In this document: positions 1,795 to 32,050 of the stretch, piece after piece
Numbering within the stretch: the stretch's first letter is position 1
Layout of the letters: each line of letters opens with the position of its first letter
Virus record (IMG/VR): IMGVR_UViG_3300027917_004314
DNA: 64,000 nt
Source: a virus
Taxonomy: Duplodnaviria; Caudoviricetes
Direction: 5' to 3' (one strand)
The notes under the pieces: generated by a model
The model's input: only the letters and a program-made list of their open reading frames with translations
What the model was told of the DNA's origin: nothing
Databases searched by the model: none
Made by a program: the position numbers and the translations under genes

Positions 1795-4700
1795 ATGAAA
1801 ATTAGAGTTCACGGGATGTTAGGAACTTATCACTCATGGTCGCTAACTACACAGGCTTTAGTACGTGCTATGGTAAAGATCGGCGGCCATGAAATATTCC
1901 TAAAATCTACAAACAATCTAGAGAACTTTCCAGAAGATTTGAAAGATTTGTTGCTTCCGGGATATCATGGTGCCCTAGTTCAAGGGGATGCTAATTATAT
2001 TGATGGGCAAGGCAATGAAATAACAATTACGCCGAAAAATAGAGAACCGGAAATCAGAGACTTAAACAGGCCTTATGATTTGGAATTTTGTTATACGATC
2101 CCCTACCAACATCCAAGACGATTTTATCCAGAATCAAGGTGTAGGGCCGTTGTATGGAACTTTGAAAGCTCTATTTTACCACCTGGCTGGCATTATTATT
2201 CCAGAGCAGTCGACTATATGCTTCCATCTAGCCAATTTTCATACGACATATTCGCTCAAAATGGTATACCAGAAGAAAAACTTGTTGTGGTGCCACACGG
2301 TGTAGACACCAACATATTTAATCCTGATATTCCTCCGTTCAAGTTAAAGACTAAGAAACGGGTGAAATTATTACATAATGCTATTCCACATCACAGAAAG
2401 CTACATGAAAGGGTTATTAAAGGATATATCGATACGTTTACTGGCAATGACGATGTATGCTTAGTGCTCAAAACAAAATTTGTGAAGCCACCCAAGGAAA
2501 AGCCGTTTGAAGTAGATGTTAAAGAAATTCTTACCAAAGCTTTGCAGGGAAAAAGAAACCCACCAGAAATCGAAGTAATTAATGACAAATTTATTTCAAA
2601 TATAGGGTCTCTTTATACTGCCTGTGATGCTGTAGTTAGTATGAGTTCCACTGAAGGGTTTTGCCTGTTGCCAGGTACGCCCGTGGATACAATTTATGGC
2701 ACAGAGTCAATAGAAAATTTATCAACAATAGATCAGGTTTATACTCACCTTGGAAACGCAAAATATATTTCATCGGTAATGAGCCGTAATATTGACGAGG
2801 AAATTGTAAAGATGAGACGTCATGGCTGTGATGATTATTTTTGCGGTACGATCAACCATCCTCATTTGGTAGTGAAAAGAAAAAACAAGAAATTTTCTAC
2901 GTTAAAAAAAGACATGAGAGAAGGAAAACTTGAAACACAATGGGTTGGTTTAAAAGACGTGGAAAAAGGAGATTTAGTGGTTATTGCTAAGCCTAAATTA
3001 AATTTTCCGCCCCAAACAACAATAGATTTAAAAGATCATCTGCTTTGGTCAACTTTTGAAGAAAAAAACGGCAAAATTTGGCTGAAAGGAAGTTTTAAAA
3101 AAAGCAGTGGAAATAGTTCTCTGCGCGAAATAGCAAAACGTGCGGGTTGTTCTATTCAACATGCGTCGCAAGTGGTAAATGTGGGCACACATTCTAATAC
3201 CGATTTTAACAAAAATATAATTAAAATAGCAAAAGAGCTTAAATATGTAAAACCACAGCCAATTAAGTTCAATCGGTTTATTAAAATTGACAGTGTATTG
3301 GCCCAATTTTTTGGGTTATATATAGCAGAAGGCTCGGTTTCCGGCCTGAACGCGAAATCTTTTAACATAAATTTGCACGATGATGAAAATTATGGGAAGG
3401 ATTTAGTTAGATCCATATGTAAGCGTTTTGATATGCCGTTTTGTGAAATTAAATATGGAAAAAAATACCAACTTTCTGGGTCAAGTCACATTTTTTCCAT
3501 ACTACTCTCTCGCTTATTTGGTTCTAACGCACTTAACAAAATGATACCGTTTGCTATGTTAAACACTTCTTTTATTAAAGATATTATTCATGGCATATTT
3601 TATGGCGATGGAAGCGCGTCCAGAGGAAAATATTCATTTTCAACGTCTTCTCGCACATTGCGCGACCAAATTTTTCAAGTACTTTTGCACCATGGCATTT
3701 TTTCTAATTTAAGAACAGACAGACGTAGGGAACATGAAAACTACATAATAGAAATAGCTAGCACCTATAACGAAAAATTCAGTGACTTTGCAAATCCAGT
3801 AAAATACACTAAAAAAATAAAATTATTGAATACAAACAAAAACAGTGCAATAATTGAGGGTCGTGACCATTTCCTAGTTCCAGTCAGAGATGTTTATAAA
3901 GAGCACCACAAAGGTACAGTATATAACTTGGAAGTGGAAGATGACTCAACTTTCAATTCCTTAGGTATGAGCACACACAACTGTCTCCCTCTCCTCGAAG
4001 CTCTGGCGTGCGAAAAACTAATAATTGCCCCCAGACACGGCGGCCAACTCGATTTTCTTAACGACGAAAATTCTATACTAGTAGACACAGGTGAAATGCA
4101 GGCTCCCGCAACCATGCAGTATTGGGGTTATATGAAAGGCGCCGTTGTAGGCGATCCAGATATAGAACATTACAAGGAAATGTTAAAACACGTATATGAC
4201 AATCTTGACGAAGAAAAAAATAGAATACGTGAACCGGCTAAGAAAACCGTGAACAAGTTCACCTGGGAAGCTGCCGCGCAAATGATTTTGGATCTCCCAA
4301 TACCCGAAAAAAGTTTTAAGCTTCATAGCAAAAAAAGAGTTCTATATATAGTTCCATATAAGATGGTTGGTGGTGGGGAAGTGTGGATTAGAGAAGCCAT
4401 ATCCAGGTTAGATAGAGCAAAATATGAGCCACATGTGGCCTTGGTTTCGGGCTCGTCGCCCGAATTAGAAAAGCTGTTTGAAGGATTGGGCATAACCATA
4501 GAAGATTTATCTAACAATCTAACAAAAGATGGTGCTTTAAAGTGCTTAATAGAAGCCGGCAACTACGATATTATTCATTTTTATAATAGTGTTGGCGTGT
4601 ATAGAATAATACGAGAAGCGTGTCGTCAAATGGGGTTTCGTGGTCGTGTCGTAGAAACCGTACACAGTGAATTATTGTGGGCTGATTCTATGTCTAAAGT

Positions 4701-5400
4701 GTCCTCACGCGAGCAATTTGTTAGTGTTATTGCGGCTGTATCAAACGCTATGGCACGGAAACTTCTAAGCATGGGCAACAAAAATGTGGTATCTATGCCC
4801 CAACATGTAGATTGGAACAGGTTTCTTAATCTTGAAAGATCTAAAGATATTTTAGAAAAACACAGCATTCCAAAAAATTTTGTTGTAGGTTTTGTTGGCA
4901 GATTGTCCCCAGAAAAAAACATACCGGCTTTACTAGAGTGCGCTAGAATACTTCGCGACGTGTCTTTTGTTGTGATCGGAGACGGGCCTCAAAAAGAGCC
5001 TCTTAGCCAGATAGCCAGAGAGCTAAAGAATGTTTTCTTTATGGGCCGAAGGACAGATTTAGAACGCTGGTACCCAGCATTTGATCTGCTAATGTTGCCT
5101 TCAACAATGGAAGGTATGCCATTAGTGGTATTAGAAGCCATGGCTTCGGGAACACCAGTTGTGGCGTCAGACGTCGGCGCAATGTCGGAAGTTGTTTTAG
5201 ATGGCATTACCGGTAGTTTGGTGTGGAACCCAAAGAATCCGGTTTTATTTGCTAATGTGATTAAATCCTTTAAAACAAATAGCGTCTTGTGGAATAGGTG
5301 CTCTGCTAACGCTAGAATGGTGGCTGCATCTCTCAGAGAAAAATCTAATGGATTTAATATAAATCATCTTTATAGAATGCTTGAAGGAGGGGGCAACTAA
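1795..5400 (+). CDS. Tandem GT4 (GT-B) glycosyltransferase, two GT4 units, interrupted by an intein
   Basis: PHGVD, STEGF|CLPLLEALAC in the first unit; GFVGRLSPEKN, EGMPLVVLEAMASGTPVVASDVG in the second. Confidence 0.9.
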   Translation: MKIRVHGMLGTYHSWSLTTQALVRAMVKIGGHEIFLKSTNNLENFPEDLKDLLLPGYHGALVQGDANYIDGQGNEITITPKNREPEIRDLNRPYDLEFCYTIPYQHPRRFYPESRCRAVVWNFESSILPPGWHYYSRAVDYMLPSSQFSYDIFAQNGIPEEKLVVVPHGVDTNIFNPDIPPFKLKTKKRVKLLHNAIPHHRKLHERVIKGYIDTFTGNDDVCLVLKTKFVKPPKEKPFEVDVKEILTKALQGKRNPPEIEVINDKFISNIGSLYTACDAVVSMSSTEGFCLLPGTPVDTIYGTESIENLSTIDQVYTHLGNAKYISSVMSRNIDEEIVKMRRHGCDDYFCGTINHPHLVVKRKNKKFSTLKKDMREGKLETQWVGLKDVEKGDLVVIAKPKLNFPPQTTIDLKDHLLWSTFEEKNGKIWLKGSFKKSSGNSSLREIAKRAGCSIQHASQVVNVGTHSNTDFNKNIIKIAKELKYVKPQPIKFNRFIKIDSVLAQFFGLYIAEGSVSGLNAKSFNINLHDDENYGKDLVRSICKRFDMPFCEIKYGKKYQLSGSSHIFSILLSRLFGSNALNKMIPFAMLNTSFIKDIIHGIFYGDGSASRGKYSFSTSSRTLRDQIFQVLLHHGIFSNLRTDRRREHENYIIEIASTYNEKFSDFANPVKYTKKIKLLNTNKNSAIIEGRDHFLVPVRDVYKEHHKGTVYNLEVEDDSTFNSLGMSTHNCLPLLEALACEKLIIAPRHGGQLDFLNDENSILVDTGEMQAPATMQYWGYMKGAVVGDPDIEHYKEMLKHVYDNLDEEKNRIREPAKKTVNKFTWEAAAQMILDLPIPEKSFKLHSKKRVLYIVPYKMVGGGEVWIREAISRLDRAKYEPHVALVSGSSPELEKLFEGLGITIEDLSNNLTKDGALKCLIEAGNYDIIHFYNSVGVYRIIREACRQMGFRGRVVETVHSELLWADSMSKVSSREQFVSVIAAVSNAMARKLLSMGNKNVVSMPQHVDWNRFLNLERSKDILEKHSIPKNFVVGFVGRLSPEKNIPALLECARILRDVSFVVIGDGPQKEPLSQIARELKNVFFMGRRTDLERWYPAFDLLMLPSTMEGMPLVVLEAMASGTPVVASDVGAMSEVVLDGITGSLVWNPKNPVLFANVIKSFKTNSVLWNRCSANARMVAASLREKSNGFNINHLYRMLEGGGN
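2662..3981 (+). mobile_element. Intein (440 aa) with LAGLIDADG homing endonuclease, inside the GT4 gene
   Basis: Starts CLLPGTPV, ends ...VYNLEVEDDSTFNSLGMSTHN followed by Cys+1; LAQFFGLYIAEGS and IIHGIFYGDGS blocks; excision restores EGFCLPLLEA. Confidence 0.92.
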
Positions 5401-5404: not shown

Positions 5405-6934
5405 ATGGAAATTTTACAGCCTTCATGGAGAGGCAGATCTACGAACATAAGGAAAGACGCTAATGGTAGAAAATATACAGCAATGGTCGGCAAAAATTCG
5501 TTGTTGTATATTCCCATTCATGTTAAAGAAAAGTCCAATTACCGGGTTACCATAGAGCTATGCCGAGAAAGCGGCAACGGTATTGTTTTTTGTAATATAT
5601 ACGGTAACAAAAATTTTGACTTTCCTGCTAAGAAAATAGAGTGCAACGACGAGAATTGGTGCACATATGATATAGATATTGAAACAAAGTCCTTTCCTAA
5701 AACGGTACCAATGATGTTTAGGATATGGAGACCAGATAATGGCACTGGTACTGTGTTGATAAGAAAAGTTATTGTGGAGCTTTTAGAAAATAAAGTTGCT
5801 ACTGACGGAGACCCAATAATAGTGTCGACAGAAAATGTTGTGCCAATGCAACGCAATATAAGGCGCCATGTAAAATCAAATGCAAAACATGGCACCGGGG
5901 CGAGACCAAGGTCTAAAGTTAGGTCTGGGAATCGTAAACTTGGAACGCCACCTCATCAAATTGCTAGGGGATCACCGCACAGGAGAAAGCCAAGGCGACC
6001 AAAAGAAATTAAACCAATACTCCCTATTGGTAAGTTTATGCCAGAAGTAGACGAGTTGACTGCTGGAGAAGATGGAATTAAAAATTCTGTTATTATATCA
6101 ATTAGCAACAGGAGAGAGTTTTTCGACAGGACTCTGCTCACTTATGCCAAACAAACCATGCGCAAAGAAGAGTTTGAGTTGGTCGTCGTAGACGACGGCA
6201 GCACTGAAGATATTCTTGGGTTGTGTAAACAACATGCAAAAAAGTCTGGCCTACAGTTTCAATACATTAGAGCCGATTCAAACAGGGGCACGGTGCCACA
6301 ACGTGGATGGACGCCAGCTCTCACAAATAACATAGGGTTTCGGAAAGCTCGCGGTTCTGTGTTTATTATAACTGGGCCAGAGACCCTGCAGCGCGAAACA
6401 AACATGGAGAGAACGTGGTATGTGTGTCATGACCCTGTGTGTATATATGGGATAGTTTATAAATCTGATGCATCTTTTGTTGATGCAATTAGAAACAATT
6501 CCAGGTGGGTTGGATATGAGCATTTTACACACCTTATACGCAAATATACAACAAACCTAGAGCGACCTTCAACTGGCGGATTTTGGTGGTATTATGCGGC
6601 AACTAGAAAAGAATACATTATGACAGTCCGTGGCGTTGATGAAAGGTTTATGTTGGGCATAACTGCTGAAGACGATGATTTTGCAGAACGTATGAGATTT
6701 TTAGGGTTGAAGCTCGCACATGATTTCGAAATAATAGGAATACATCAAAATCACTCGCGTGAAGACAGAACATCTACAACACACGGATGGCGCTTTAATG
6801 AAACCAAATGGCGCAATATGCGAGCCCACAATATGAAACTTTTATATGATCGAAAAAGATCTGGTGATCCAATCGTCAATAAAGGCATTGACTGGGGGAC
6901 AGACATAGCGATATTGGATATGGAGGTGTTTTAA
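5405..6934 (+). CDS. GT2-family glycosyltransferase with an N-terminal beta-rich domain and a basic linker
   Basis: C-half SVIISISNR...ELVVVDDGS, AEDDDF; R/K/P-rich linker. Confidence 0.8.
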   Translation: MEILQPSWRGRSTNIRKDANGRKYTAMVGKNSLLYIPIHVKEKSNYRVTIELCRESGNGIVFCNIYGNKNFDFPAKKIECNDENWCTYDIDIETKSFPKTVPMMFRIWRPDNGTGTVLIRKVIVELLENKVATDGDPIIVSTENVVPMQRNIRRHVKSNAKHGTGARPRSKVRSGNRKLGTPPHQIARGSPHRRKPRRPKEIKPILPIGKFMPEVDELTAGEDGIKNSVIISISNRREFFDRTLLTYAKQTMRKEEFELVVVDDGSTEDILGLCKQHAKKSGLQFQYIRADSNRGTVPQRGWTPALTNNIGFRKARGSVFIITGPETLQRETNMERTWYVCHDPVCIYGIVYKSDASFVDAIRNNSRWVGYEHFTHLIRKYTTNLERPSTGGFWWYYAATRKEYIMTVRGVDERFMLGITAEDDDFAERMRFLGLKLAHDFEIIGIHQNHSREDRTSTTHGWRFNETKWRNMRAHNMKLLYDRKRSGDPIVNKGIDWGTDIAILDMEVF

Positions 6935-7779
6935 TGTCTGCTATTTGTATGCTTTTTAATGGTGGCATGTATGCAATAGAAGGCTGGGTGTGTCACTACA
7001 CTCTGCACCAACTAGATCCCGATCTCAAGGTGTATCTATTATGTATAGATAATGAAGTATTGGAAAAGGCAAAAACGCTGGTGGATAAAGGTGTTGTGCC
7101 AATTTCATTGCATGATTTTGAAAAAACGTATCCGAAATTATTAAATATTAAAAATTCTAGGGCTTTGAAGGAATATATTGTCACAATGAAGCCCTTTTTG
7201 CCTGAGTACATTTTTAATAACTTTGGAGAAGAGAAGTTGATTTTTGCAGACTCGGACATTGCGTTTTGGAATGATCCGTCCGAAATTTTTGAAGAGCTAG
7301 ATAAATGTTCTTTTTGGGCTAAAGATCATGAAATTGAACCACCAAGAAGTGCTGGCCGGTTTAATGTTGGTTTGCTAGGATACAAAGATGACAACAATTG
7401 TAGAACCTGGCTTAAGTGGTGGCAAGAAAGATGTATTGAATGGTGTCAATGGAGAGCACATAACGGTAAATTTGCAGAACAGGGATATTTAAATATATTA
7501 CATGATAACCCATCAAAGTTTAACGGATTTACATCCATAAAACATCCAGGCGTTAATCTAGCTCCATGGAATATATCGAAACATACGGTATATCAAGAAG
7601 ATAATAAACTAAAGGTGGATGGACAAAACCTAATTTGTTATCACTACCATGAATTTGAAATAACGAACAGAGGTTATCATCCCACGGGCTGGAAGTTGCC
7701 GCCTGGTACTAAACAACTAATCTACGAAAAGTATTTTGGGCTGGTTCAAAAATCTATGAGTAATATTTTGTGGAGATAA
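6934..7779 (+). CDS. GT-A fold nucleotide-diphospho-sugar transferase-like protein
   Basis: FADSD DxD motif, FNVG, EQGYLN, NLAPWN, YHYH. Confidence 0.65.
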   Translation: MSAICMLFNGGMYAIEGWVCHYTLHQLDPDLKVYLLCIDNEVLEKAKTLVDKGVVPISLHDFEKTYPKLLNIKNSRALKEYIVTMKPFLPEYIFNNFGEEKLIFADSDIAFWNDPSEIFEELDKCSFWAKDHEIEPPRSAGRFNVGLLGYKDDNNCRTWLKWWQERCIEWCQWRAHNGKFAEQGYLNILHDNPSKFNGFTSIKHPGVNLAPWNISKHTVYQEDNKLKVDGQNLICYHYHEFEITNRGYHPTGWKLPPGTKQLIYEKYFGLVQKSMSNILWR

Positions 7780-7783: not shown

Positions 7784-8686
7784 ATGAAGATATCCTTTGG
7801 TATGATTGTATTTAATGGCGATTACGTATTAAACGAACTGTTGGAAACTATTTATAGTTTTGCACATGAAATTATAATTTCAGAGGGGCCGGTAAAACAC
7901 TACCAAAAACAGGGCCTAAAGGAATCAACGGATAATACCGTAGAAATTATAAAGTCTTTCCCTGACCCAGCTAATAAAATAAAGCTATTACAAAACCAAT
8001 GGGCCAATAAAGATGCCATGTGTAACGCGTTTTTAAAACACATGACAGGTGATTATGTTTGGCATGTTGATTCTGATGAGTTGTATAAGCCAGAAGATAT
8101 TGAGAAGGTAATTAAGTATTTGGAAAAAAACAAAAAAACATGTTTTTCTATGTCTTTTAAACTAGCATCATTTTATGGTGGCTTTCAAAGACAGATTTCC
8201 GGTTTCGAAGAAACATTTGAGGTACACAGAATCAAAAAAATTATTCCAGGGAGATCTAGGTGGATCACACATAGGCCGCCCACTATGCTGTGGCCGCCAA
8301 CCGGCAAAAAATGTAGGGATATGGGTCATGTTGACCATAATGTAACAGACACATGGGGCGTCAGGATTTTTCACTACTCTTTTGTTTTTCCAAAACAGGT
8401 TAAGGCGAAAACTAAATATTACTATGATCGAGATCCACGAGGCATAGTCCCAAACTATTGGGATAAACTATACGTTCCATGGATGCGTGCAACAACAGGC
8501 GAAGAAAAGCATAGAATTGAAATGCCGACCAGAGGAGTACATGTGTGGCTGCCACACAGAAGGGGTGATGCTTTTACAAAAGAATTTGATGACAAGCACC
8601 CAGCAGCAATAGAACAAGCCATACCGGCGTTAGAACAAAGAATCTTAGATGAAGGCAGAGACTTGGGTATATGGCCGCGAAAATGA
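7784..8686 (+). CDS. GT2-like glycosyltransferase
   Basis: ISFGMIVFN start, WHVDSDE motif, HYS near the C-terminus. Confidence 0.75.
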   Translation: MKISFGMIVFNGDYVLNELLETIYSFAHEIIISEGPVKHYQKQGLKESTDNTVEIIKSFPDPANKIKLLQNQWANKDAMCNAFLKHMTGDYVWHVDSDELYKPEDIEKVIKYLEKNKKTCFSMSFKLASFYGGFQRQISGFEETFEVHRIKKIIPGRSRWITHRPPTMLWPPTGKKCRDMGHVDHNVTDTWGVRIFHYSFVFPKQVKAKTKYYYDRDPRGIVPNYWDKLYVPWMRATTGEEKHRIEMPTRGVHVWLPHRRGDAFTKEFDDKHPAAIEQAIPALEQRILDEGRDLGIWPRK

Positions 8687-9618: not shown

Positions 9619-10266
9619 ATGAAGGCTACGGGCGACAGCTGGAAACATGAAGAAATTCCGAAAAGGCAGTATGAGTTGACTAGCAAAGAATTAGATGATT
9701 TAAAAAATAACGAGCCACACATTGTGTGGCAAACTATTTGTGACACCATAAATGAACATATACCAAGTGAGATTAAAACGGTATTAGATTTTGGTTGTGC
9801 TTCCGGTTATTTCTACGATGTTTTTCGCCACCTGCTTAAGAACATTCTTGGATATGTTGGAGCAGATTATTCAGATGAAATGGTTAAGCTTGCACGACAA
9901 AATTATCCAGATGTTTATTTTTTTGTTGATGATGTAAGAAACATAACCCTACCAGATAAATCTCAAGATTTCGTTTTTTCTAATGCTGTTTTAGAACATG
10001 TTCCAGAATGGCGAAAGGGTTTTACAGAACTGTGTAGAATAACGTCAAAATATTTAATGCTAAGCAAGATGCCCACTGATGATGAATCTTTTAGTACCAT
10101 TGAGAAAGAAATATATGGCGGTATCCCGGTCTTTTTTAATAAATTTAACCGTTCTGATATTATCGAATTGGCACGAAACGAAGGTTTCAGCCTAGTATGC
10201 GAGAAAAAAACGCACCCGGCCGCAAACAACATATATAGAATTTTCGTTTTCAAAAGAGAGGAATAA
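9619..10266 (+). CDS. Class I SAM-dependent methyltransferase
   Basis: VLDFGCASG, GADYS, AVLEHV. Confidence 0.85.
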   Translation: MKATGDSWKHEEIPKRQYELTSKELDDLKNNEPHIVWQTICDTINEHIPSEIKTVLDFGCASGYFYDVFRHLLKNILGYVGADYSDEMVKLARQNYPDVYFFVDDVRNITLPDKSQDFVFSNAVLEHVPEWRKGFTELCRITSKYLMLSKMPTDDESFSTIEKEIYGGIPVFFNKFNRSDIIELARNEGFSLVCEKKTHPAANNIYRIFVFKREE

Positions 10267-11217: not shown

Positions 11218-11219
11218 CA

Positions 11220-15560: not shown

Positions 15561-15570
15561 GGGCAAACAG

Positions 15571-25343: not shown

Positions 25344-26018
25344 ATGAAGATCATTATAACAGGCTCCGAAGGAATAATCGGACAGAAGCTAGTTCCATTA
25401 CTTACAGGTAATGGTCATAAAATTGTTAAGTGCGATAGGGATTTGGGGCATGATCTTTCCGATAAAAAATGCGTGGAGAGTTTTTTTGAAACACACCGTG
25501 CCGATGCCCTGATAAATCTATTCGCTCTGGATGATAAATTAACAAATAACACAAAATCTGACACGGTCTGGGACTTTTCTTTAGATTTATTCATGGAATA
25601 TATGGAAACAAATGTAGTATCGCTTTTTTCTGTGTGCCGAGAATTTGCCAAACATAATGATTCTGGGAGTATAATAAATTTTTCGTCGATTTATGGAGTA
25701 GTTTCTCCTGATTATTCGTTATATGAGTTAAACAAACATAAACATATTGGCTATTGTGTGTCTAAAGCAGCAGTTCTTCAAATGTCAAGATATTTAGCAG
25801 TTCATTTAGTGCCGTGTAGAGTAAACAGTATCGTTTGTGGGGCAATTGAAAACAAGCAAGAGTTAAAATTTGTTGAACGTTTTTCCAAGCGAGTTCCAAT
25901 TGGCAGAATGATGAGTGCCGATGAATTGGTTGGTTTGGTAGAATATCTCTGTTCTAATAAGTCATCTTATTGTACTGGCGGAGAATTTACTATTGATGGT
26001 GGATATACCATATGGTGA
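25344..26018 (+). CDS. Classical SDR oxidoreductase (PtmA-like)
   Basis: ITGSEGIIG, NFSSIYG, YCVSK (YxxxK), DGGYT. Confidence 0.85.
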   Translation: MKIIITGSEGIIGQKLVPLLTGNGHKIVKCDRDLGHDLSDKKCVESFFETHRADALINLFALDDKLTNNTKSDTVWDFSLDLFMEYMETNVVSLFSVCREFAKHNDSGSIINFSSIYGVVSPDYSLYELNKHKHIGYCVSKAAVLQMSRYLAVHLVPCRVNSIVCGAIENKQELKFVERFSKRVPIGRMMSADELVGLVEYLCSNKSSYCTGGEFTIDGGYTIW

Positions 26019-26022
26019 AAAA

Positions 26023-26901
26023 ATGATGAAAGTTTCCGTAGTTATTTCAGTTTGTGATAATCGAACCAATTTTTTTGAGAGATCTCTACATACGTGGTCT
26101 AATCAAACTCTACCAAAAAATGAATTCGAGTTAATTATTGTAGATGATGCCTCACGTGATGATATCAAGGATCTATGTTTTAAATTTCATGAAGAAACCG
26201 GCATGCAATTTCAATATATTAAAATAGATAGCTCTAAGTGTGACGTACCAATAACGACCTTTTTACCCATACTTACTAATAATGTGGGAATTAGAAAATC
26301 TAAAGGTGATGTTATCGTGATAACTGGACCGGAGACTTTACAGGGAAAAGGAAACTTGCTAATAGCCTCTAGCATGATTGATAGGCGAGAATGCGCATAT
26401 GGTCTGTGTTATAAATCTAACACTGAGTTTGTTGGAGAGTTGGATAAGAACTGGGATAAATATAAAGATTTACATATGTCTGGCTTACTCAGAATGAAGG
26501 GGGCTGCTGTTTCTTGTTTGACGCGTCCTCCGCATCCACCAGCATATTGGTATATAATGGCAGTAGCAAAGAAACATATAGAGCGGATTGGAGGAGTAGA
26601 TGAGGCTTTTGGCACTGGTTATTGTGCTGAAGATGATGATTTTGCAAATAGAATGCGTATGTCGGGCATAATACCCGTTTTTGAACATAAAATTATAGGT
26701 ATACATCAAGATCATTCAGCCCAAGATGCTAAAGATAAAGTACACTCAGTAAGAAACGAGGAAAGGGGAAGACGCCTTAGACAAAAAAATATAGCGCTCA
26801 TGAGAAAAAACTTACGTGAGGGAAAAATGATCGCTAATCAAGATCATGTTTGGGGAGATGAAAAAGTCATAACTTTTTCTGAAATGTGGTGTCAAAAATG
26901 A
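26023..26901 (+). CDS. GT2 glycosyltransferase, paralog of the C-domain of 5405-6934
   Basis: SVVISV, IIVDD, ITGPETLQ, AEDDDFANRMR, IIGIHQDHS. Confidence 0.8.
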   Translation: MMKVSVVISVCDNRTNFFERSLHTWSNQTLPKNEFELIIVDDASRDDIKDLCFKFHEETGMQFQYIKIDSSKCDVPITTFLPILTNNVGIRKSKGDVIVITGPETLQGKGNLLIASSMIDRRECAYGLCYKSNTEFVGELDKNWDKYKDLHMSGLLRMKGAAVSCLTRPPHPPAYWYIMAVAKKHIERIGGVDEAFGTGYCAEDDDFANRMRMSGIIPVFEHKIIGIHQDHSAQDAKDKVHSVRNEERGRRLRQKNIALMRKNLREGKMIANQDHVWGDEKVITFSEMWCQK

Positions 26902-27467
26902 AATTACATCTAGGGTGCGGCGCGATACTTTTAAAAGGATATATTAACGTGGATATCGATCCTAAATATTTGACAAAAGACGCACCTTTTGAAATCTTAG
27001 AACAAAACATCACTACTATTGAGAAATATTATAAACACGAATTTTGTAAAGGATCTGGCGTTTGTGTCGCCGACGTTAAAGCAGCCATCGATGATCTTCC
27101 GTTTGATGCTGAATCCTGTGACGAAGTGGTTCTTATACATGTTCTGGAACATGTCCCTAGTTATAATGTAACTAAGGTTTTAAACGAAATTAATAGAGTA
27201 CTTAAAAATAAAGGAACATTCCATTTAGGTGTGCCCGACTTAAAAGAAACTGCACGAGGCTTAATTAAAGCGAAATCTCCTGAAGAAGAAGATTGGTATA
27301 TGAGATTGATATATGGTACACAAAGAAGCGAATGGTCACATCATTATTGTGGGTACACAGAAAGAACTATTAAAAACTTGGTCTTTGATCATGGGTTTGC
27401 TGGATATGAGAAATTACCCAATATTAACTTTTATCCTGCTATACATTTTAAAACTTTTAAGGAATAA
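26898..27467 (+). CDS. SAM-dependent methyltransferase (KLHLGCG type)
   Basis: KLHLGCG...GYINVD, HVLEHV, RVLK...VPD. Confidence 0.85.
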   Translation: MKLHLGCGAILLKGYINVDIDPKYLTKDAPFEILEQNITTIEKYYKHEFCKGSGVCVADVKAAIDDLPFDAESCDEVVLIHVLEHVPSYNVTKVLNEINRVLKNKGTFHLGVPDLKETARGLIKAKSPEEEDWYMRLIYGTQRSEWSHHYCGYTERTIKNLVFDHGFAGYEKLPNINFYPAIHFKTFKE

Positions 27468-27504: not shown

Positions 27505-27579
27505 ATGAAAAATAAGTTATCTGATGAAGAGTTTATAAAATTATGTTGTTTGGTATCAAAATATTCGGAGAAAAGATAA
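27505..27579 (+). CDS. Possible 24-aa micro-ORF (MKNKLSDEEFIKLCCLVSKYSEKR)
   Basis: Fills the gap and its TAA overlaps the next ATG (TAATG); no other support. Confidence 0.25.
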   Translation: MKNKLSDEEFIKLCCLVSKYSEKR

Positions 27580-28520
27580 TGAAAATATTAGTAACTGGTG
27601 GTACTGGATTTCTTGGAAAATATGTTGTAACGGAAATCGAAAAAAGAAAATATAAAATAAAAGCAATTGGTAGTAATCATGACCTTACTCAGTTTGGTGT
27701 GGCTACAAAAATTGTTGACAGTTACCGCCCAAATGTGATAGTGCATTTGGCAGCTGCGTGTGGCGGAATCAAGGCAAACATAAATTGTCCTGGAAACTTT
27801 TTTAGAGATAATATATTAATGGGGATTAATATAATAGACGCTGCACGTTTATTAAAAGTAGAAAAAATTATATATGTTGGTACAACATGTAGTTATCCTA
27901 AAAATACTCCTGTTCCATTTCGTGAAGAAAACATATGGAGTAATTTCCCAGAAAAAACGAATGCTCCATATGGCATTGCCAAAAGGGCTTTGCTCGTTAT
28001 GTTACAAGCATATCGAAAACAATATGGATTAAATGGTATCTATCTCATACCGTCCAATCTATATGGACCTGGAGACCATTTTGATTTAGAAAATTCTCAT
28101 GTTATTCCCGCACTTATAAGAAAGTTTTATGAGGCAAAAATAAATGGGGAAAAGGCTGTGGAGATTTGGGGTACTGGTAATGCTTGTAGAGAATTTCTAT
28201 ACGCAAAAGATGCTGCCACAGGCATCGTAGATGCGATGGAAAAATATAATGGGAATGATCCTGTTAACTTAGGAACCGGCTGCGAAATTTCAATTCGCGA
28301 TTTGGTTACACTTATTAAGAAAAAAGTCGACTTTAATGGCGATATTGAATGGAATACTAAGATGCCAGATGGTCAACCCAGACGTTGCTTGGATGTATCC
28401 AAAGCTGCAGAATTTTTTGGTTTTCGTGCCTCGACCTCTCTTAGTGATGGGCTAGATGAAACAATTCAGTGGTATATTGATAATAGGGAAAATATTTTAA
28501 AAGGAGAAACAGAAGCGTGA
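27579..28520 (+). CDS. fcl: GDP-L-fucose synthase/ColC-type epimerase-reductase
   Basis: VTGGTGFLG, HLAAACGGI, GTTCSYP, YGIAK, SHVIPALIRKF, WGTG..CREFLY, DGQPRR. Confidence 0.92.
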   Translation: MKILVTGGTGFLGKYVVTEIEKRKYKIKAIGSNHDLTQFGVATKIVDSYRPNVIVHLAAACGGIKANINCPGNFFRDNILMGINIIDAARLLKVEKIIYVGTTCSYPKNTPVPFREENIWSNFPEKTNAPYGIAKRALLVMLQAYRKQYGLNGIYLIPSNLYGPGDHFDLENSHVIPALIRKFYEAKINGEKAVEIWGTGNACREFLYAKDAATGIVDAMEKYNGNDPVNLGTGCEISIRDLVTLIKKKVDFNGDIEWNTKMPDGQPRRCLDVSKAAEFFGFRASTSLSDGLDETIQWYIDNRENILKGETEA

Positions 28521-29530
28521 AAAAGAAAACTGCATTAATAACTGGCGTTGCTGGACAGGCTGGAAGTTATATGGCTGAGTTTCTTTTGGAAAAAGATTAT
28601 GAGGTTGTTGGTGTAATTAGACGAAACGCAACGAGAAATTTAGGCACTGTAGCCCATTTAGAGAGCGAAATAGATATAGTAGAGGGCGATGTAACAGATA
28701 TGTCTTCTATGTTGAAGATAATACAGGATGTCCGCCCAAAAGAATTATACAATCTTGCTGCTCAATCTCATGTCCATACAAGTTTTGAACAACCCGTGGC
28801 GGCAATAAATATTAATACGCTTGGGGTAATTAATATATTAGAAACAGTTAAGGTATTAGGGTATTCTACCAGAATATATCAGGCTAGCACTTCTGAATTG
28901 TGGGGGTCTTCGCCCCCGCCCCAAAATGAAGAAACAATAATGCAACCACAATCGCCTTATGCCATAGCTAAACTGGCGGCTCATTGGTTAGTTAAACTTT
29001 ATAGAAAAGCATATAAAATGTATTGTTGCTGTGGCATAACTCACAACTTTGAAAGTCCCAGAAGAGGGCCGCTTTTTGTTACAAGAAAAATTTCGATGGG
29101 CGTCGCAAAATGTCTACAAAATTCCAAATACAAACTAAAACTGGGCAATTTAAATGCTCAAAGGGATTGGGGATATTGTCCAGATTATGTGAAGGGCTGG
29201 TGGCAAATGCTTCAACAAGAAACGCCCGATGATTTTGTTTTTGCCACAAACGAAATGCATTCCGTAAAAGAGTTTTGTGAAATAGCGTTTTCACACGTAG
29301 GTTTGAACTGGGAAGATTATGTAGAAGTAGATAGATTTCTTCGGAGACCAGCAGAAGTAGAGGCTTTGTGTGGCGACTATTCTAAAGCTAAAGAAATTTT
29401 AGGTTGGGAACCTAAAATAAAATTTGAGGAACTGGTTAAAATTATGGTTGAACATGATTGTAAACTTTTAGGAGTATATCCAGATGCGAGTGATAAACAC
29501 GACTGCGAAACTGAACCTATGTTTGAATAA
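28517..29530 (+). CDS. gmd: GDP-mannose 4,6-dehydratase
   Basis: TGVAGQAGSY, LAAQSHV..SF, QASTSE, SPYAIAK, ESPRRG..FVTRKI, GNLNAQRDWG. Confidence 0.95.
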   Translation: MKKKTALITGVAGQAGSYMAEFLLEKDYEVVGVIRRNATRNLGTVAHLESEIDIVEGDVTDMSSMLKIIQDVRPKELYNLAAQSHVHTSFEQPVAAININTLGVINILETVKVLGYSTRIYQASTSELWGSSPPPQNEETIMQPQSPYAIAKLAAHWLVKLYRKAYKMYCCCGITHNFESPRRGPLFVTRKISMGVAKCLQNSKYKLKLGNLNAQRDWGYCPDYVKGWWQMLQQETPDDFVFATNEMHSVKEFCEIAFSHVGLNWEDYVEVDRFLRRPAEVEALCGDYSKAKEILGWEPKIKFEELVKIMVEHDCKLLGVYPDASDKHDCETEPMFE

Positions 29531-29786
29531 AAAATTAAAATTCCACCCAGATTATATAAAGTGGTTAAGTACCTGGGACTCAAATATTACTAGAAGTCCA
29601 ACATTTATAATTCATGATTTTTGCTTTTCAGATAAGCATAAAGCATTTTGGCTCAGGTTGTATTGCCAAGGACGTACGAAAGATTTGGAATATTGGATTA
29701 CGCCGGACAATAAAATGTATATATTGCCGGGAGTAACTACATTTTTAAGAAATTATGATGGTAAAGTATTTATAAATACAGAGTAA
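29484..29786 (+). CDS. Hypothetical protein
   Basis: Fills the gap; true start may be TTG 29523. Confidence 0.5.
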   Translation: MRVINTTAKLNLCLNKKLKFHPDYIKWLSTWDSNITRSPTFIIHDFCFSDKHKAFWLRLYCQGRTKDLEYWITPDNKMYILPGVTTFLRNYDGKVFINTE

Positions 29787-29790
29787 AGGA

Positions 29791-30054
29791 ATGAAAATTC
29801 TAAATACTGATAAATTTAAAGTAGAGATTGGGGATAAAATAGAATTAAATCACAACTATAAAAAAATTTTAAAGAATTATAAAGATACTTTTTATATTGT
29901 AAAAAATATAACATATGTTAAAGAAGAGTTGTGGTTGGAAGTTTTAGATTCCAGTGGAAAACCATGGTTTATTGATATAACACCAAACAACAGACTTTTG
30001 CCGAAAGAAAAGTTCATGAACTATAAGGGTAGAGTAATAAGGAAAATAAGGTGA
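29791..30054 (+). CDS. Small hypothetical protein (SH3-like, KVEIGDKI)
   Basis: AGGA RBS; similar N-terminus to the next ORF. Confidence 0.6.
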   Translation: MKILNTDKFKVEIGDKIELNHNYKKILKNYKDTFYIVKNITYVKEELWLEVLDSSGKPWFIDITPNNRLLPKEKFMNYKGRVIRKIR

Positions 30055-30395
30055 AAATTGTAAATCCAAATAGATTTTTAGTACGTGTCGGTGATATGTT
30101 AGAATACAATCAAAAAGCAATAGATTATATTAATGTTTTCAAGAAAAAATTGGGGCATAAAATAATGCCTTCTGCCCCTGAACTTAATAAGCAAAATCCA
30201 ACTGTTAAAAAATATGAAAAAGGTGTGGCTAGTAATGGAGAAAAATTTATAGAATTGTGGGTTGAACACAATGATAAATATACTGGATTTTCTGGTGTTG
30301 TTTGGGGTCCAAAAACAGATGTGTGGTGCCTAGATTTAGATGGCAGCATTAATGGATGTCCAGATCCTTTGTTTAAAAGGAAAATTGTAAATTAG
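30051..30395 (+). CDS. Small hypothetical protein, probable paralog of 29791-30054
   Basis: MKIVNPNRFLVRVGDMLEYN vs MKILNTDKFKVEIGDKIELN. Confidence 0.6.
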   Translation: MKIVNPNRFLVRVGDMLEYNQKAIDYINVFKKKLGHKIMPSAPELNKQNPTVKKYEKGVASNGEKFIELWVEHNDKYTGFSGVVWGPKTDVWCLDLDGSINGCPDPLFKRKIVN

Positions 30396-30405
30396 GGGGA
30401 GATTA

Positions 30406-31206
30406 ATGTCTATTGGAATATTTGTGCCCTGTTTTAATGTGAGACCTTATATTAGAGAATCACTAGAAAGCATTTTAAAACAAACTTACAAAGATTGGGA
30501 GCTTGTTATTATAGATGATTGTTCTACAGATGGTACTTATGAAAAACTTAAAAGTTTTCGTACGTGGCTTTCTGATGATAATTTCTCCATTCATCAAAGA
30601 GAAAGTCATTGTGGCTTAATAGGTAAAGTTAAAAACGAGGCCATCTCCAAGTTTACTAGAGAGCATGAATATATATGTCATGTTGGCTCAGATGATATAA
30701 TACCAGAATATTGTTTACAAGTATGTGTAGATTATATGGATAAACATCCAGAAATAGGAGCGTGCTGTGGAAACTTTGTATGTTTTGACGACCAAGGTAA
30801 CAAATGGACTTTTCCGCATGTGGCAAACAGCGGAGACTATGATCCAAGTGTCCTTCTTCGATATATGTGTTTATTTCCCCACAGATTTTATCGTCGGTCT
30901 GTGGTAGAACAAGTTGGTGGATATTCAAATGAACTTAGTTCTGCTGTTGATTATGACCTTGCTTTAAAACTAGATGAGGTAACTCAAATACATAGAATAA
31001 AAGATCCAATTACATATTATTATCGGCAACATGCACAGCAAGTTTCTACAAGAGCGCGACCCGAACAGGATGCAAATGCTAAAAAAGCCTTAAAAGCTGC
31101 CCTTGAGAGAAGAAATATAGATGCGATTGTTAAAAATGAAAAAATGCCCTTTGAAATTAAATATATAGAAGAAGAACATTTTATATGGGGAGGCGGCGGT
31201 GAGTAG
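30406..31206 (+). CDS. GT2 glycosyltransferase
   Basis: FVPCFN, IIDDCSTDGT, HVGSDD, VDYDL. Confidence 0.9.
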   Translation: MSIGIFVPCFNVRPYIRESLESILKQTYKDWELVIIDDCSTDGTYEKLKSFRTWLSDDNFSIHQRESHCGLIGKVKNEAISKFTREHEYICHVGSDDIIPEYCLQVCVDYMDKHPEIGACCGNFVCFDDQGNKWTFPHVANSGDYDPSVLLRYMCLFPHRFYRRSVVEQVGGYSNELSSAVDYDLALKLDEVTQIHRIKDPITYYYRQHAQQVSTRARPEQDANAKKALKAALERRNIDAIVKNEKMPFEIKYIEEEHFIWGGGGE

Positions 31207-32050
31207 AAAGAAAAAGACGAAAATCTTAGTGTGTGGGTCGGCCCAGTTTTTGATATCAAATTTTATACGTTACATTTTGTATAGGTCACAAGATTATAAC
31301 ATTGTAAGCGTAGATAATTTAGAAAAGCCATCCGACATTAAAAGAATTTATTTTCATAAAAATCATAGGTTTTATGTTGGTGATTCATCCGATGAATATT
31401 TTATAGATAGGATATTTTATATAGAGAGGCCTAATATAATAATATGTGGCGATGAACAGCTTGATTATGAAAAATTATTAAAAACGGCGCAAAATTTAAT
31501 TAAATTTAATGTGCCTATTATTACAATATCTCCAACCGTATGTTGTGGTGAAGGAAATGATTTATATGGGATCTATAGCTCTGTAGATAAATTTATTACA
31601 ACTAATAGAGGTATGGTAATAAGGTTACCAAATAGATTTGGAATGCGACAAAGACCAAGTATGCTTGAAAAGCAAGGAGTAAATCTGGCGTATATTATGG
31701 GCTGCGTTTTAAATAAAATTTATTTTAAAGTTAATAATGTTGAGTTACCTTGGGTATATGCTGAAGATGTTGCATCTTTTCTTTGGTATTCAATAGAGAA
31801 TTATCAAAAGGGCGAGACCATTTATATGCCGCCGCTTGGATTGAAGAGTGGTAAAGATATAGTTGAAAAAGTAATTGAAATGTATAACTTAAAGTCTGTT
31901 CCACATTGCGTTGAAGAAATTCCTAATGCAAATTGTGGTAATGAAGTTTATCGTATGGTTGGATGGATTCCAGATTCACAAGATATGGAGCATGCTTTAG
32001 AGAAGACTATTAAGTGGTTTGATGTTAATAGGTGGGCCTTTAATGAGTAA
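31199..32050 (+). CDS. Degenerate RmlB (dTDP-glucose 4,6-dehydratase)-like protein
   Basis: ILVCGSAQFLISNFIRY, FYVGD, NRFG..Q, WVYAEDVA, LEKTIKWF track RmlB, but GxxGxxG and YxxxK are missing. Confidence 0.6.
   Translation: MSRKKKTKILVCGSAQFLISNFIRYILYRSQDYNIVSVDNLEKPSDIKRIYFHKNHRFYVGDSSDEYFIDRIFYIERPNIIICGDEQLDYEKLLKTAQNLIKFNVPIITISPTVCCGEGNDLYGIYSSVDKFITTNRGMVIRLPNRFGMRQRPSMLEKQGVNLAYIMGCVLNKIYFKVNNVELPWVYAEDVASFLWYSIENYQKGETIYMPPLGLKSGKDIVEKVIEMYNLKSVPHCVEEIPNANCGNEVYRMVGWIPDSQDMEHALEKTIKWFDVNRWAFNE

Follow-up and report, generated by a model that had tools for sequence, protein, structure and literature searches.

A 30-kb island of soluble glycan enzymes in a large uncultured phage, most plausibly serving a variable glycan on the phage's own particle

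Mycobacteriophages are known to glycosylate their virions, with glycans on the capsid and tail-tube proteins (Freeman et al. 2023, as relayed in PMC12619734 and PMC12801897). In these secondary accounts the cassettes consist of few genes, soluble phage-encoded glycosyltransferases (GTs) lie beside structural genes, glycosylation of particle proteins takes place in the cytoplasm and needs no export, and the acceptors (capsid and tail-tube C-termini) were shown by mass spectrometry. Virions of the jumbo phage XacN1 also contain glycoproteins (PMC5852040). Large sugar clusters are already known from big cyanophages: the cyanomyoviruses P-SSM2, S-SCSM1 and S-SCSM2R carry at least a dozen GTs, sugar epimerases and Kdo-type genes in several groups, with S-SCSM2R having 13 GTs, possibly the highest number among marine phages, and the literature reads them, without experiment, as modifying the host surface (PMC12801897). 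Chlorovirus capsid glycosylation is ER-independent and uses virus GMD/GMER and a GT-GT-MT protein; PBCV-1 has at least eight soluble GTs without signal peptides, GT-GT-methyltransferase multidomain proteins, methylated deoxyhexose chemistry and glycosylation apart from cellular membrane pathways, its N-linked glycans residing on a jelly-roll capsid protein and its genes being dispersed (PMC7019647). In the Bacillus subtilis spore crust, the products of sps and cge genes (a CgeB-type GT, GT2 enzymes and a nonulosonic acid pathway with NeuB-type synthase, DegT aminotransferase and cytidylyltransferase) are soluble enzymes that glycosylate a protein particle in the cytoplasm, and lysis frees it (PMC7439481, PMC13577073).

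The island described here lies in a 64,000-nt window from an uncultured 461-kb phage of marine sediment, which spends about 30 kb on it. As in the mycobacteriophage accounts, soluble GTs are encoded beside structural genes, and addition in the cytoplasm is proposed; the island differs in having 31 genes, its own sugar-nucleotide pathways, a separate unit by the baseplate/fibre genes and a putative acceptor. Compared with the cyanomyovirus clusters, it packs 12 GT genes (13 domains) into one 30-kb unit, in another phage lineage, and its lack of membrane parts was examined clade-wide. The likeness to giant viruses that the first-pass annotation had drawn holds up in size and content: a virus-encoded GMD with fucose synthase, many soluble multidomain GTs and methyltransferases run parallel to PBCV-1, although here in a tailed phage and a single compact hypervariable island, and without a claim of common descent. 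The spore crust, which shares the proposed cytoplasmic assembly and the putative nonulosonic acid pathway, with PF13524 as the presumed counterpart of CgeB, belongs to cellular development under sigma K, and its likeness to the island is at family level only. ABC-transporter-dependent O-antigen loci such as that of E. coli O9a (WbdA/WbdD) require WecA priming, Wzm/Wzt export and WaaL ligation. With these loci the island has in common a soluble multidomain GT4, polymerising in O9a, and methylation or acid-sugar capping of chain ends, but WecA, Wzm/Wzt and WaaL are not encoded in the island or its relatives.

Table 1 Features of the island and its surroundings, by position in the window (GT, glycosyltransferase; MT, methyltransferase domain; RS, radical SAM; NS, nucleotide-sugar gene)
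Position	Strand	Class	Feature	Evidence
1458..1492	+		Predicted intrinsic terminator of upstream fibre/baseplate-module gene	12-bp stem, 6 GC pairs, T run
1518..1542	+		Promoter-like motif AAATCTATTAATA-N6-CATTAT	relatives carry AAATCTATCAATA
1571..1792	+		Small ribbon-helix-helix-like DNA-binding protein, 73 aa, opens unit	phrog_876 transcriptional repressor, E 2e-6
1795..5400	+	GT	Double GT4, conserved first enzyme	Pfam
2662..3981	+		LAGLIDADG intein, 440 aa, within EX7E motif of first GT4 domain
5405..6934	+	GT	GT2 with N-terminal CBM-like beta-sandwich	Pfam; model; fold search
6934..7779	+	GT	GT8-like GT-A, DxD motif	Atlas score 0.98, structural TM 0.9 to GT clusters
7784..8686	+	GT	GT2	Pfam
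8671..9609	+	GT	GT47/exostosin-like	Pfam
9619..10266	+	MT	Class I SAM methyltransferase	Pfam
10267..11217	+	RS	Radical SAM with SPASM domain	Pfam, NCBIfam
11220..12653	+	MT (C-terminus)	Putative sulfotransferase N-terminus (lead only); sugar O-methyltransferase C-terminus, NanM-like
12654..13925	+	NS	DegT-family PLP enzyme, nearest RfbH/ColD-type 3-dehydrases	below equivalog cut-off
13888..14619	+	GT	GT-A-like protein, lead	ESM Atlas
14628..15560	+	GT	GT2	Pfam/NCBIfam
15493..16416	+	NS	NAD-dependent sugar epimerase/reductase	Pfam, NCBIfam
16389..17108	+	GT	GT29-like (sialyltransferase-type) transferase	Pfam 4e-8, above cut-off; PDB ST6Gal1 7.5e-5; orthologue in G005
17127..17720	+	MT	Methyltransf_24 / rhamnosyl O-methyltransferase-like	Pfam
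17717..18766	+	GT	GT-B, PF13524 (Glyco_trans_1_2)	Pfam
18766..19698	+	GT	Weak GT2_5-like	Pfam, below cut-off
19683..20471	+	MT (weak)	Possible methyltransferase
20468..21844	+	RS	B12-binding radical SAM, methylase-type	Pfam, NCBIfam
21888..23336	+	MT (N-terminus, weak); NS (C-terminus)	Methyltransferase-like N-terminus; KdsB/PseF-type cytidylyltransferase	Pfam, NCBIfam
23317..24504	+	NS	PseC/LegC-like sugar aminotransferase	Pfam, NCBIfam
24501..25340	+	NS	NeuB-family ulosonic acid synthase, 279 aa	orthologue in G005
25344..26018	+	NS	Short-chain dehydrogenase	Pfam, NCBIfam
25993..26901	+	GT	GT2, core	Pfam; relatives
26886..27467	+	MT	Class I methyltransferase, near-core	orthologues G001, G003, G005, G006, G007; no match in G002
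27543..28520	+	NS	GDP-L-fucose synthase-like, core	NCBIfam Fcl 1.6e-87
28517..29530	+	NS	GDP-mannose 4,6-dehydratase (GMD), core	61-71% identity to the relatives' enzymes
29484..30395	+		Three small paralogous ORFs (29484, 29791, 30051; 100, 87, 114 aa)	alike N-termini; no family match
30406..31206	+	GT	GT2, core	Pfam/NCBIfam; 49-64% identical in relatives
31199..32050	+	NS	Epimerase/reductase-like; conserved, closes the island ahead of tubulin
50768..58779	+		Five putative surface proteins with many D-[GAS]-Y motifs; acceptor candidates, not part of the island

The ORF listing gives 31 consecutive genes, all on the plus strand from 1795 to 32050, with intergenic gaps of -68 to +75 nt, the very layout claimed in the first-pass annotation. 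Its further counts (28 glycan-related genes, about 12 GT genes, six methyltransferase domains, two radical SAM enzymes) were reproduced by Pfam, NCBIfam and ESM Atlas annotation, which leaves over the three small paralogous ORFs and puts the nucleotide-sugar genes at nine; the GT calls at 6934 and 13888 are predictions from ESM Atlas leads only, and five GT genes are GT2 by Pfam/NCBIfam. The NeuB-family synthase covers positions 2-274 of the 329-position NeuB model and is thus without the C-terminal part of full-length NeuB. PF13524 in ORF 17717 is, we take it, the CgeB domain; in G001 its counterpart forms a single 1197-aa protein together with a GT2 and another copy of itself. Homologues of ORF 6934 occur in G002, G005, G006 and G007. 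The small ORFs have one homologue in G002, and G005 encodes four small ORFs (93-111 aa) between its GMD and GT2 orthologues.

Judged by its sequence matches, the double GT4 is clade-specific. Orthologues with 51-59% identity open the island in all close relatives, and about 90 metagenomic homologues were found at 43% identity or more, many on contigs of 250-460 kb; beyond these, the next matches have 32% identity over half the length, with no close homologue in cellular genomes and none in any cultured relative. The bounds of its intein, which runs from a Cys to a His-Asn pair with Cys as the next residue, come from alignment with intein-free orthologues. In the second gene, a Pro-rich, disordered linker of about 100 aa joins the GT2 to a beta-sandwich (residues 15-127 of the predicted model, pLDDT 70-87) that matches many carbohydrate-binding modules (CBMs) in a fold search (Z 10-11.7, rmsd 2.4-3.0 over 112-125 residues) as well as the sugar-binding domain of phage KP32 gp38. 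Every close relative compared at full length (G002, G005, G006, G007) has a full-length orthologue, and G001 and G003 match at the GT2 domain only. This predicted CBM-like domain on a conserved GT2 fits action upon a large glycan-bearing surface.

Absence of membrane export and priming genes from the locus, as first proposed, was borne out by hydropathy and Pfam searches and extends to eight related contigs. The Kyte-Doolittle mean over 19 residues stays below 1.6 in every island ORF, peaking at 1.51 within a Rossmann strand, and among the 31 genes there is no match to priming, flippase, polymerase, ligase or ABC families. Pfam searches of the whole window found no Bac_transf, Glycos_transf_4 (WecA/MraY), Wzx, Wzy_C, ABC2_membrane, GtrA or PMT. 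Across the eight relatives, including the complete genome G007 (441,904 bp, CheckV 100%), no Bac_transf, WecA/MraY, Wzx (two families), Wzy_C/WaaL, ABC-2, PMT_2 or GtrA scored over cut-off, and no ORF with six or more hydrophobic segments occurs in G001, G002, G004 or G007. The island is fully soluble.

Both flanks are phage DNA, where bacterial-chromosome flanks had been named as a refutation. Downstream follow tubulin, UvsW, DnaB, RNR and PhoH. Upstream the window covers just 1.8 kb, whose ORFs have no family match but do match proteins from the relatives' baseplate/fibre block, so that the earlier statement that the locus begins right after virion genes stands by synteny, not by in-window families, and with a terminator between the blocks. 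Every relative found has the island placed between the baseplate/fibre block and the phage tubulin gene, which bears out synteny with structural genes in related large phages, a check suggested in the first-pass annotation; in G001 a phrog_6 baseplate wedge gene is three genes 5' of it. Its length ranges from 14 to 34 kb, with conserved ends and a variable middle, and its core is retained over GC contents of 0.30 to 0.56. We propose that the conserved ends and swappable middle give the particle surface something akin to a serotype locus.

A predicted strong terminator (1458-1485), with hairpins at the matching position in G003, G005 and G006, divides the island from the upstream fibre/baseplate block, and by this sequence signal the island is its own transcription unit. 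The motif AAATCTATCAATA stands directly upstream of the island in 7/7 close relatives (intergenic region) and also 5' of the tail sheath orthologue in three genomes (G001, G003, G007). It is not virion-gene-specific, because in G003 it is found before thioredoxin-like, kinase-like and SSB-like genes as well; its role would be that of a promoter. An ORF at the regulator position is kept in G001, G002, G003, G005, G006 and G007.

Taken as a whole, the island would be a self-contained, lipid-independent cytoplasmic pathway whose product is a complex glycan with heavy tailoring. Within this scheme the gene content, the solubility, the clade-wide lack of membrane parts, the synteny and the conserved motif are observed, whereas we infer when the genes are expressed, which sugars are made and, most of all, what the acceptor is. 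The promoter-like motif behind the fibre/baseplate terminator would drive a single long unit with the ribbon-helix-helix regulator first. The core GMD and fucose synthase would convert host GDP-mannose to GDP-L-fucose. Further modules are present in this phage: the RfbH/ColD-like enzyme with a reductase probably adds a 3,6-dideoxyhexose, and the NeuB-like synthase, aminotransferase, dehydrogenase and cytidylyltransferase probably yield a CMP-activated ulosonic or nonulosonic acid. Twelve soluble GTs would build the chain, including the double GT4, which would depend on intein splicing, the CBM-tethered GT2 and, for the acid sugar, the GT29-like transferase; six methyltransferase domains, a possible sulfotransferase and two radical SAM enzymes would tailor it. 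The glycan would most likely be joined to outward-facing particle proteins during virion assembly in the cytoplasm, with no export required because lysis frees the particles.

We give glycosylation of virion proteins by the island enzymes about an even chance, and a variable glycan on the phage's own particle is most plausibly the product. Indirect support comes from the fixed position by baseplate/fibre genes, the promoter-like motif common with the tail sheath gene, the core kept over the wide GC range and the CBM-like domain joined to a GT2. Neighbouring particle proteins also show an enrichment, about 10-fold, of a Tyr-specific D-[GAS]-Y motif, and the mycobacteriophage, XacN1 and chlorovirus cases serve as precedents. 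Against it speak the separation of the unit from the virion operon by the strong terminator, the motif's occurrence before non-virion genes and the lack of the double GT4 from any cultured relative. The first-pass claim of lipid-independent virion glycosylation stands as regards phage DNA, solubility and the lack of export or priming genes in the eight relatives, but these do not imply the acceptor, because the cytosolic GT2 and GT4 enzymes that serve bacterial O-antigen pathways are soluble as well and because the host could provide a lipid primer and exporter, a use compatible with the missing membrane genes. This leads to a reading that we consider rather unlikely, in which the phage GTs extend a glycan on the host's undecaprenyl-pyrophosphate primer and host flippase or ABC transporter plus ligase export it, so that the infected cell surface would be altered, e.g., with superinfection blocked or progeny kept off debris. 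Soluble GT2/GT4 enzymes occur in bacterial exopolysaccharide pathways too, and a double GT4 with methyl/acid-sugar caps is reminiscent of ABC-dependent O-antigen systems (WbdA/WbdD, WbbB). In NCBIfam, several GTs come closest to named bacterial families (EpsD/EpsE, TuaG, PglI) that act in exopolysaccharide, teichuronic acid and lipid-linked oligosaccharide pathways, and known protein-initiating families (Maf, GT41) were not recognised in the island, both of which count against the virion reading. Known phage serotype-conversion systems carry their own membrane components, unlike the island and its eight relatives, one of them a complete genome. Core and position are constant over presumably very different hosts, the island adjoins baseplate/fibre genes and shares its motif with the sheath gene, and the predicted CBM-tethered GT2 would be better suited to a large acceptor in solution than to a lipid in the membrane. 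The published interpretation of the P-SSM2, S-SCSM1 and S-SCSM2R clusters as host cell-wall modification favours remodelling of the envelope (PMC12801897).

A free or protein-linked cytoplasmic glycoconjugate outside the particle, for instance host proteins or non-structural proteins of the phage that bear sugars, a polysaccharide for storage or protection that lysis sets free, or a small molecule with sugars attached, strikes us as improbable. B12 and SPASM radical SAM enzymes, DegT and many methyltransferases are typical of natural-product clusters too, and the island is its own predicted unit with its own regulator; yet aglycone-forming genes (PKS, NRPS, cyclases) were not found in the island, 12 GTs imply a long chain and not a decorated small molecule, and the constant location beside particle genes in all relatives would be left unexplained. 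The first-pass alternative of DNA as acceptor is unlikely, and a glycan on modified phage bases as a shield against restriction is very improbable. Phage GTs are reported to add di- and trisaccharides to hydroxymethylated bases (bioRxiv 10.1101/2023.12.21.572611), but a thymidylate synthase/hydroxymethylase family gene is present in 1/4 relatives, far from the island, and scores as ordinary ThyA. Among the island's GTs, no family that binds DNA or flips bases could be recognised, and a set of 31 genes that includes 12 GTs, an acid-sugar pathway and a CBM-like domain goes far beyond the DNA glycosylation systems known so far.

For the preferred virion acceptor, the putative surface proteins encoded at 50768-58779 are candidates. 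They contain 33 D-[GAS]-Y motifs against 3.9 expected, compared with 2 against 4 in the island, and one of them, ORF 54700, has FG-GAP repeats. The motif could be structural or sugar-binding instead of a sequon. The same Tyr-specific, about 10-fold enrichment recurs in every relative, in large proteins just 5' of the island.

Coding DNA in the window lies entirely on the + strand according to the ORF listing, and 31 ORFs follow one another from 1795 to 32050 with intergenic gaps of -68 to +75 nt. A glycan role could be assigned to 28 of the 31 from Pfam, NCBIfam and ESM Atlas matches. Twelve encode glycosyltransferases (GTs): one double GT4 (ORF 1795-5400, the first enzyme of the island), five GT2, a GT47-like, a GT29-like and a PF13524 (Glyco_trans_1_2) protein, one weak GT2_5 match, and a GT8-like and a GT-A-like protein that are ESM Atlas leads only. 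The island also holds six methyltransferase domains, two radical SAM enzymes (one SPASM, one B12) and nine nucleotide-sugar genes. Cytosolic GTs and nucleotide-sugar genes in one co-oriented block are a feature of bacterial polysaccharide loci that the island possesses, and it fails every membrane-dependent feature of such loci and of phage serotype-conversion cassettes.

Every island ORF lacks a 19-residue hydrophobic stretch at a Kyte-Doolittle value of 1.6 or more, no multi-pass ORF occurs in the window, and no window ORF gave a family match to a priming transferase, flippase, polymerase, ligase, ABC permease, GtrA or PMT. Family searches, in which control genomes gave matches, were extended to eight related phage contigs from IMG/VR (G001-G008) reached via the tubulin and double GT4 genes. 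Priming transferases (Bac_transf, PF02397; WecA/MraY-type Glycos_transf_4, PF00953) and the polymerase/ligase family Wzy_C (PF04932) were found in none of the eight and in no window ORF, and flippases (Polysacc_synt, PF01943; Polysacc_synt_3, PF13440), the ABC-2 permease (ABC2_membrane, PF01061), GtrA (PF04138) and PMT_2 exceeded the cut-off in none of the eight. Six-frame scans found no ORF with six or more hydrophobic segments in G001, G002, G004 and the complete G007; the few ORFs with 4-7 segments in G003 comprise an M50 peptidase, unknowns and an EamA transporter that lies 130 kb from the island. The absence of membrane parts covers the 64-kb window and the eight relatives, the latter standing in for the remainder of the 461-kb genome to which the window belongs. 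The first-pass annotation had counted 31 genes, 28 of them glycan-related, and had seen no membrane-spanning protein and no membrane export or priming gene; its tallies match ours exactly, the hydropathy scan of the island agrees with it, and the missing machinery is borne out at family cut-offs in the window and all eight relatives. Whereas the GtrABC serotype cassette is a small unit of temperate phages with a GtrA flippase and membrane transferases, the island spans 30 kb and encodes no TM proteins. It differs likewise from Maf flagellin-type O-glycosylation, as the Maf/MptE-like transferase domain (PF01973) is absent from the window and gave only sub-threshold matches in G008.

One gene order recurs in the seven contigs in which both anchors were found: a baseplate wedge gene (phrog_6), very large proteins of ~2300 and ~950 aa, the island, and the tubulin gene. 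The island opens with a double GT4 orthologue of 51-59% identity (32% and single-domain in the distant relative G004) and ends in the relatives with a conserved GT2 and an epimerase-like gene ahead of tubulin. Its length is 14 kb in G001 and G003, 19.5 kb in G007 (441,904 bp, rated 100% complete), 22 kb in G006, 30 kb in the window, 31 kb in G004, 32.6 kb in G005 and 34 kb in G002, and GC across the relatives is 0.30-0.56. The core comprises the double GT4, the CBM-GT2 (ORF 5405-6934), GT2 25993, the GDP-fucose synthase, the GDP-mannose dehydratase (GMD), GT2 30406 and the terminal epimerase-like gene; full-length matches to the CBM-GT2 occur in G002, G005, G006 and G007, and G001 and G003 match its GT2 domain only. 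Methyltransferase 26886 has an orthologue in every close relative but G002, and ORFs 6934, 7784, 8671, 9619 and 13888 are common to most larger islands. The NeuB-like synthase and GT29-like transferase are shared by G005 alone, and G002 carries SIS, HAD and nucleotidyltransferase-kinase genes instead, which suggests other sugars. The trio of small paralogous ORFs has one homologue in G002 and none in the short islands; in G005 the interval between the counterparts of GMD and the last GT2 holds four small ORFs of 93-111 aa.

We found about 90 full-length metagenomic homologues of the double GT4, many on contigs of 250-460 kb; the next matches fall to 32% identity across half the length, and alignment against 185,579 prokaryote genomes (one per species) gave only partial matches of 22-29%. 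This set of clade homologues, the sharp drop in identity and the merely partial prokaryote matches argue that the island backbone is a property of this phage clade and not a recent bacterial import. Given those partial matches, no bacterial gene neighbourhood was usable for guessing the acceptor. The double GT4 was found in no cultured phage, and megablast of 8 kb of the window against cultured phages gave no match; the sole cultured-phage match of the tubulin is an FtsZ-like gene of Bacillus phage G (24% identity), with no glycan genes around it. An exact 44-mer of the window had no match in viral or metagenome contigs, and an exact search for the tubulin protein gave none either. The window's first enzyme was found on a 460,921-bp contig (P0023), and window DNA is present in marine-sediment metagenomes.

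A promoter-like motif and a small putative regulator precede the island. As AAATCTATCAATA, the motif stands at the equivalent position in all seven close relatives, often 3' of an equivalent hairpin, and has 2-6 copies per genome on the coding strand, nearly always intergenic. It also lies 5' of the tail sheath orthologue (phrog_2839; 64-70% identity) in G001, G003 and G007, and in G003 5' of thioredoxin-like, kinase-like and SSB-like genes. Because these last are not virion genes, the motif appears to mark a phage promoter class and not virion genes alone. The 9-mer CTATCAATA, with one mismatch allowed, is not over-represented across the whole window; its significance lies solely in its conservation at the same site in the relatives. 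A scan for sigma-70 promoters gave results at chance level, and no strong terminator was found inside the island. In G002 a LAGLIDADG/HNH homing endonuclease ORF (205184-206083 in re-oriented coordinates) sits between the motif and the ribbon-helix-helix gene, and G005 has a similar ORF-sized extra insert upstream of its island.

Family assignments allow several sugars to be predicted. GMD (NCBIfam gmd, 6.7e-112) and fucose synthase (Fcl, 1.6e-87), both core in all relatives, would together make GDP-L-fucose, and a 3,6-dideoxyhexose is the sugar suggested by the RfbH/ColD-like PLP enzyme and a reductase. Four further genes suggest a CMP-activated ulosonic acid, which the GT29-like ORF would transfer: those for a NeuB-family synthase (matching the 329-position NeuB model from 2 to 274), a PseC/LegC-like aminotransferase, a dehydrogenase, and a KdsB/PseF-like cytidylyltransferase that is joined to a methyltransferase-like domain. 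The putative sulfotransferase of ORF 11220 possibly indicates a sulfated glycan. In ORF 5405 a disordered, Pro-rich stretch of ~100 aa links a beta-sandwich at the N-terminus (pLDDT 70-87) to a GT2 domain; the AlphaFold model of this ORF is poor outside residues 15-127 (mean pLDDT 45), and only the N-terminal domain was interpreted. In fold, the sandwich resembles numerous carbohydrate-binding modules as well as the sugar-binding domain of phage KP32 gp38 (Z 10-11.7); a shared fold is no proof of sugar binding, and a GT tethered in this manner would fit a large acceptor surface. ORF 17717 matches PF13524 (1.7e-22), which we take to be a CgeB domain. In the PDB sequence search, ORFs 17717, 11220 and 318-1436 had no match and ORFs 5405 and 16389 only generic GT2 or ST6Gal matches. 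G001 encodes a triple GT as a single 1197-aa protein.

Features in and around the glycan island
Feature	Coordinates	Strand	Remarks
Strong terminator	1458-1485	+	Closes the upstream gene
Promoter-like motif AAATCTATTAATA-N6-CATTAT	1518-1542	+	Between terminator and first gene
Ribbon-helix-helix-like protein (phrog_876)		+	73 aa; first gene of the unit; conserved in relatives
LAGLIDADG intein	2662-3981	+	440 aa (residues 290-729), exactly within the EX7E motif of the first GT4 domain; intein-free orthologues are uninterrupted
Sulfotransferase-like N-terminal 265 residues fused to NanM-like sugar O-methyltransferase	11220-12653	+	Atlas TM 0.77 by target, feature score 0.84; lead only
Three small paralogous ORFs without family match	29484-30395	+	100, 87 and 114 aa; similar N-termini; between GMD and last GT2
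Tubulin/FtsZ-family gene	32116-33585	+	Conserved right-hand neighbour of the island; 70-78% identity in close relatives
Complete PrkA/DUF444 (YeaH)/SpoVR triad, then SLOG-family protein and sigma-70-type factor	40336-46123	+	66-74% identity in G001

By analogy, the island would work most like soluble glycosylation systems. In the mycobacteriophages described in PMC12619734, capsid and tail-tube C-termini are glycosylated by a few phage GTs. Jumbo phage XacN1 encodes two GTs, and its virions contain at least two glycoproteins (PMC5852040). Chloroviruses rely on neither ER nor Golgi to glycosylate their capsid; they encode GMD, GMER, no fewer than eight GTs and a protein of GT-GT-methyltransferase layout for this purpose (PMC7019647). 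The island resembles them in gene content through a virus-encoded GDP-mannose dehydratase and fucose synthase, soluble multidomain GTs (the double GT4), its methyltransferase domains and the lack of a membrane pathway. In the Bacillus subtilis spore crust, sps/cge enzymes, CgeB and a nonulosonic acid pathway among them, carry out glycosylation in the mother-cell cytoplasm (PMC7439481, PMC13577073), which offers a cellular parallel to a particle that receives its glycans in the cytoplasm and is then set free by lysis; a PF13524 GT and a NeuB/DegT/cytidylyltransferase acid-sugar pathway are shared with the island at family level only. What sets the island apart is its size, the conservation of the locus across the clade around a swappable middle, a putative promoter and regulator of its own, and also the CBM-tethered GT, the intein-split GT and the GT29-like/ulosonic acid module. 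We found no larger single phage sugar-gene cluster than these 31 genes described in the literature compared here.

The first-pass annotation had read the locus as lipid-independent and acting on a soluble acceptor, most plausibly virion proteins. That reading is partly supported: the locus is membrane-free across the clade and, on the question of synteny with structural genes that the annotation had raised, follows the baseplate/fibre block in all relatives, so that soluble GTs adjoining virion structural genes, a mycobacteriophage-type feature, are present in each. We regard proteins of the phage's own particle as the acceptor with about even confidence. They are favoured because the island is fixed beside baseplate/fibre genes, because a motif is common to the island and the sheath gene, because a clade-specific core is kept across phages presumably on different hosts, because export is unnecessary for particles that assemble in the cytoplasm and leave the cell by lysis, and because of a striking enrichment of the tripeptide D-[GAS]-Y. 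It occurs 33 times in ORFs 50768-58779 against 3.9 expected, and within the island 2 times against 4. Genome-wide it exceeds expectation 2-4-fold in G001-G004 and G007, and the excess is ~10-fold in a few large proteins, among them those immediately upstream of the island in every relative. None of the controls (D-x-F, D-x-W, E-x-Y, N-x-Y, reversed motif) departs from expectation, the enrichment being Tyr-specific. D-[GAS]-Y could be a sequon, or it could be a structural or ligand-binding motif instead. Two candidates for explaining it were rejected. The GT8-like ORF 6934, as a glycogenin-like tyrosine primer, is not a general initiator because G001 and G003 have no homologue yet are enriched, and the putative sulfotransferase 11220 has no homologue in G001, G003, G006 and G007, of which G001, G003 and G007 are still enriched.

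Several findings speak against a firm conclusion on the acceptor. Soluble GT2/GT4 enzymes are equally typical of lipid-linked pathways; among named families, those of EPS, teichuronic acid and PglI-type enzymes come closest; no recognised protein-initiating GT family is present; and the island is a separate operon. Remodelling of the host envelope using host machinery is unlikely but deserves serious attention: large cyanomyoviruses, which carry as many as 13 GTs and 22 genes related to the wall, are read in the literature as modifying the host surface, a reading made without experiment (PMC12801897), and this host-wall reading of large phage sugar clusters is challenged by a clade without any glycan-export part. 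Some other soluble product is a quite improbable reading, set beside the fixed position next to baseplate/fibre genes. DNA as acceptor is barely credible; PF00303, searched as a test for a hydroxymethylated-base pathway, was matched in one of four relatives, with a ThyA-like score and far from the island.

In its most specific form, the particle-protein reading is that a clade of 300-460 kb phages coats baseplate/fibre proteins with a lipid-independent, strain-variable heteroglycan of fucose, dideoxyhexose and a sialic-acid-like sugar, started on the Tyr of a D-[G/A/S]-Y sequon; the island would then be a particle serotype locus, a phage counterpart of giant-virus coats combined with glycogenin-style Tyr priming. 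We consider it distinctly unlikely that all of these parts hold together. With the glycan on the particle, huge phages would take their place beside mycobacteriophages and giant eukaryotic viruses as makers of their own glycan coat. Such a coat could determine how particles adhere to host surfaces or to sediment particles, conceal them from grazers and defences, and confer serotypes. The core (GMD, fucose synthase, about five GTs and one methyltransferase) is small enough for co-expression with a candidate acceptor.

The genome is that of a phage: 3' of the island lie tubulin, UvsW and DnaB helicases, PrkA/DUF444/SpoVR, a sigma factor, class II RNR and PhoH, and, after these, five putative surface proteins. 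G002 and G003 are labelled 'provirus' in IMG/VR. In G003 (IMGVR_UViG_3300028840_008185) the region at ~110-200 kb in re-oriented coordinates is of higher GC (reaching 0.54), has genes on both strands and encodes several membrane proteins (EamA transporter, M50 peptidase), and the sugar island itself may look host-like to provirus classifiers. About 15 metagenomic double-GT4 homologues carry an intein at the window's site. Several orthologues in G001 (L001-L007) and G002 are far longer than those of the window (GMD 717-729 vs 337 aa, UvsW 852 vs 509, PrkA 1436 vs 659 aa, RNR 1598 vs 830 aa), which suggests further inteins at other sites.
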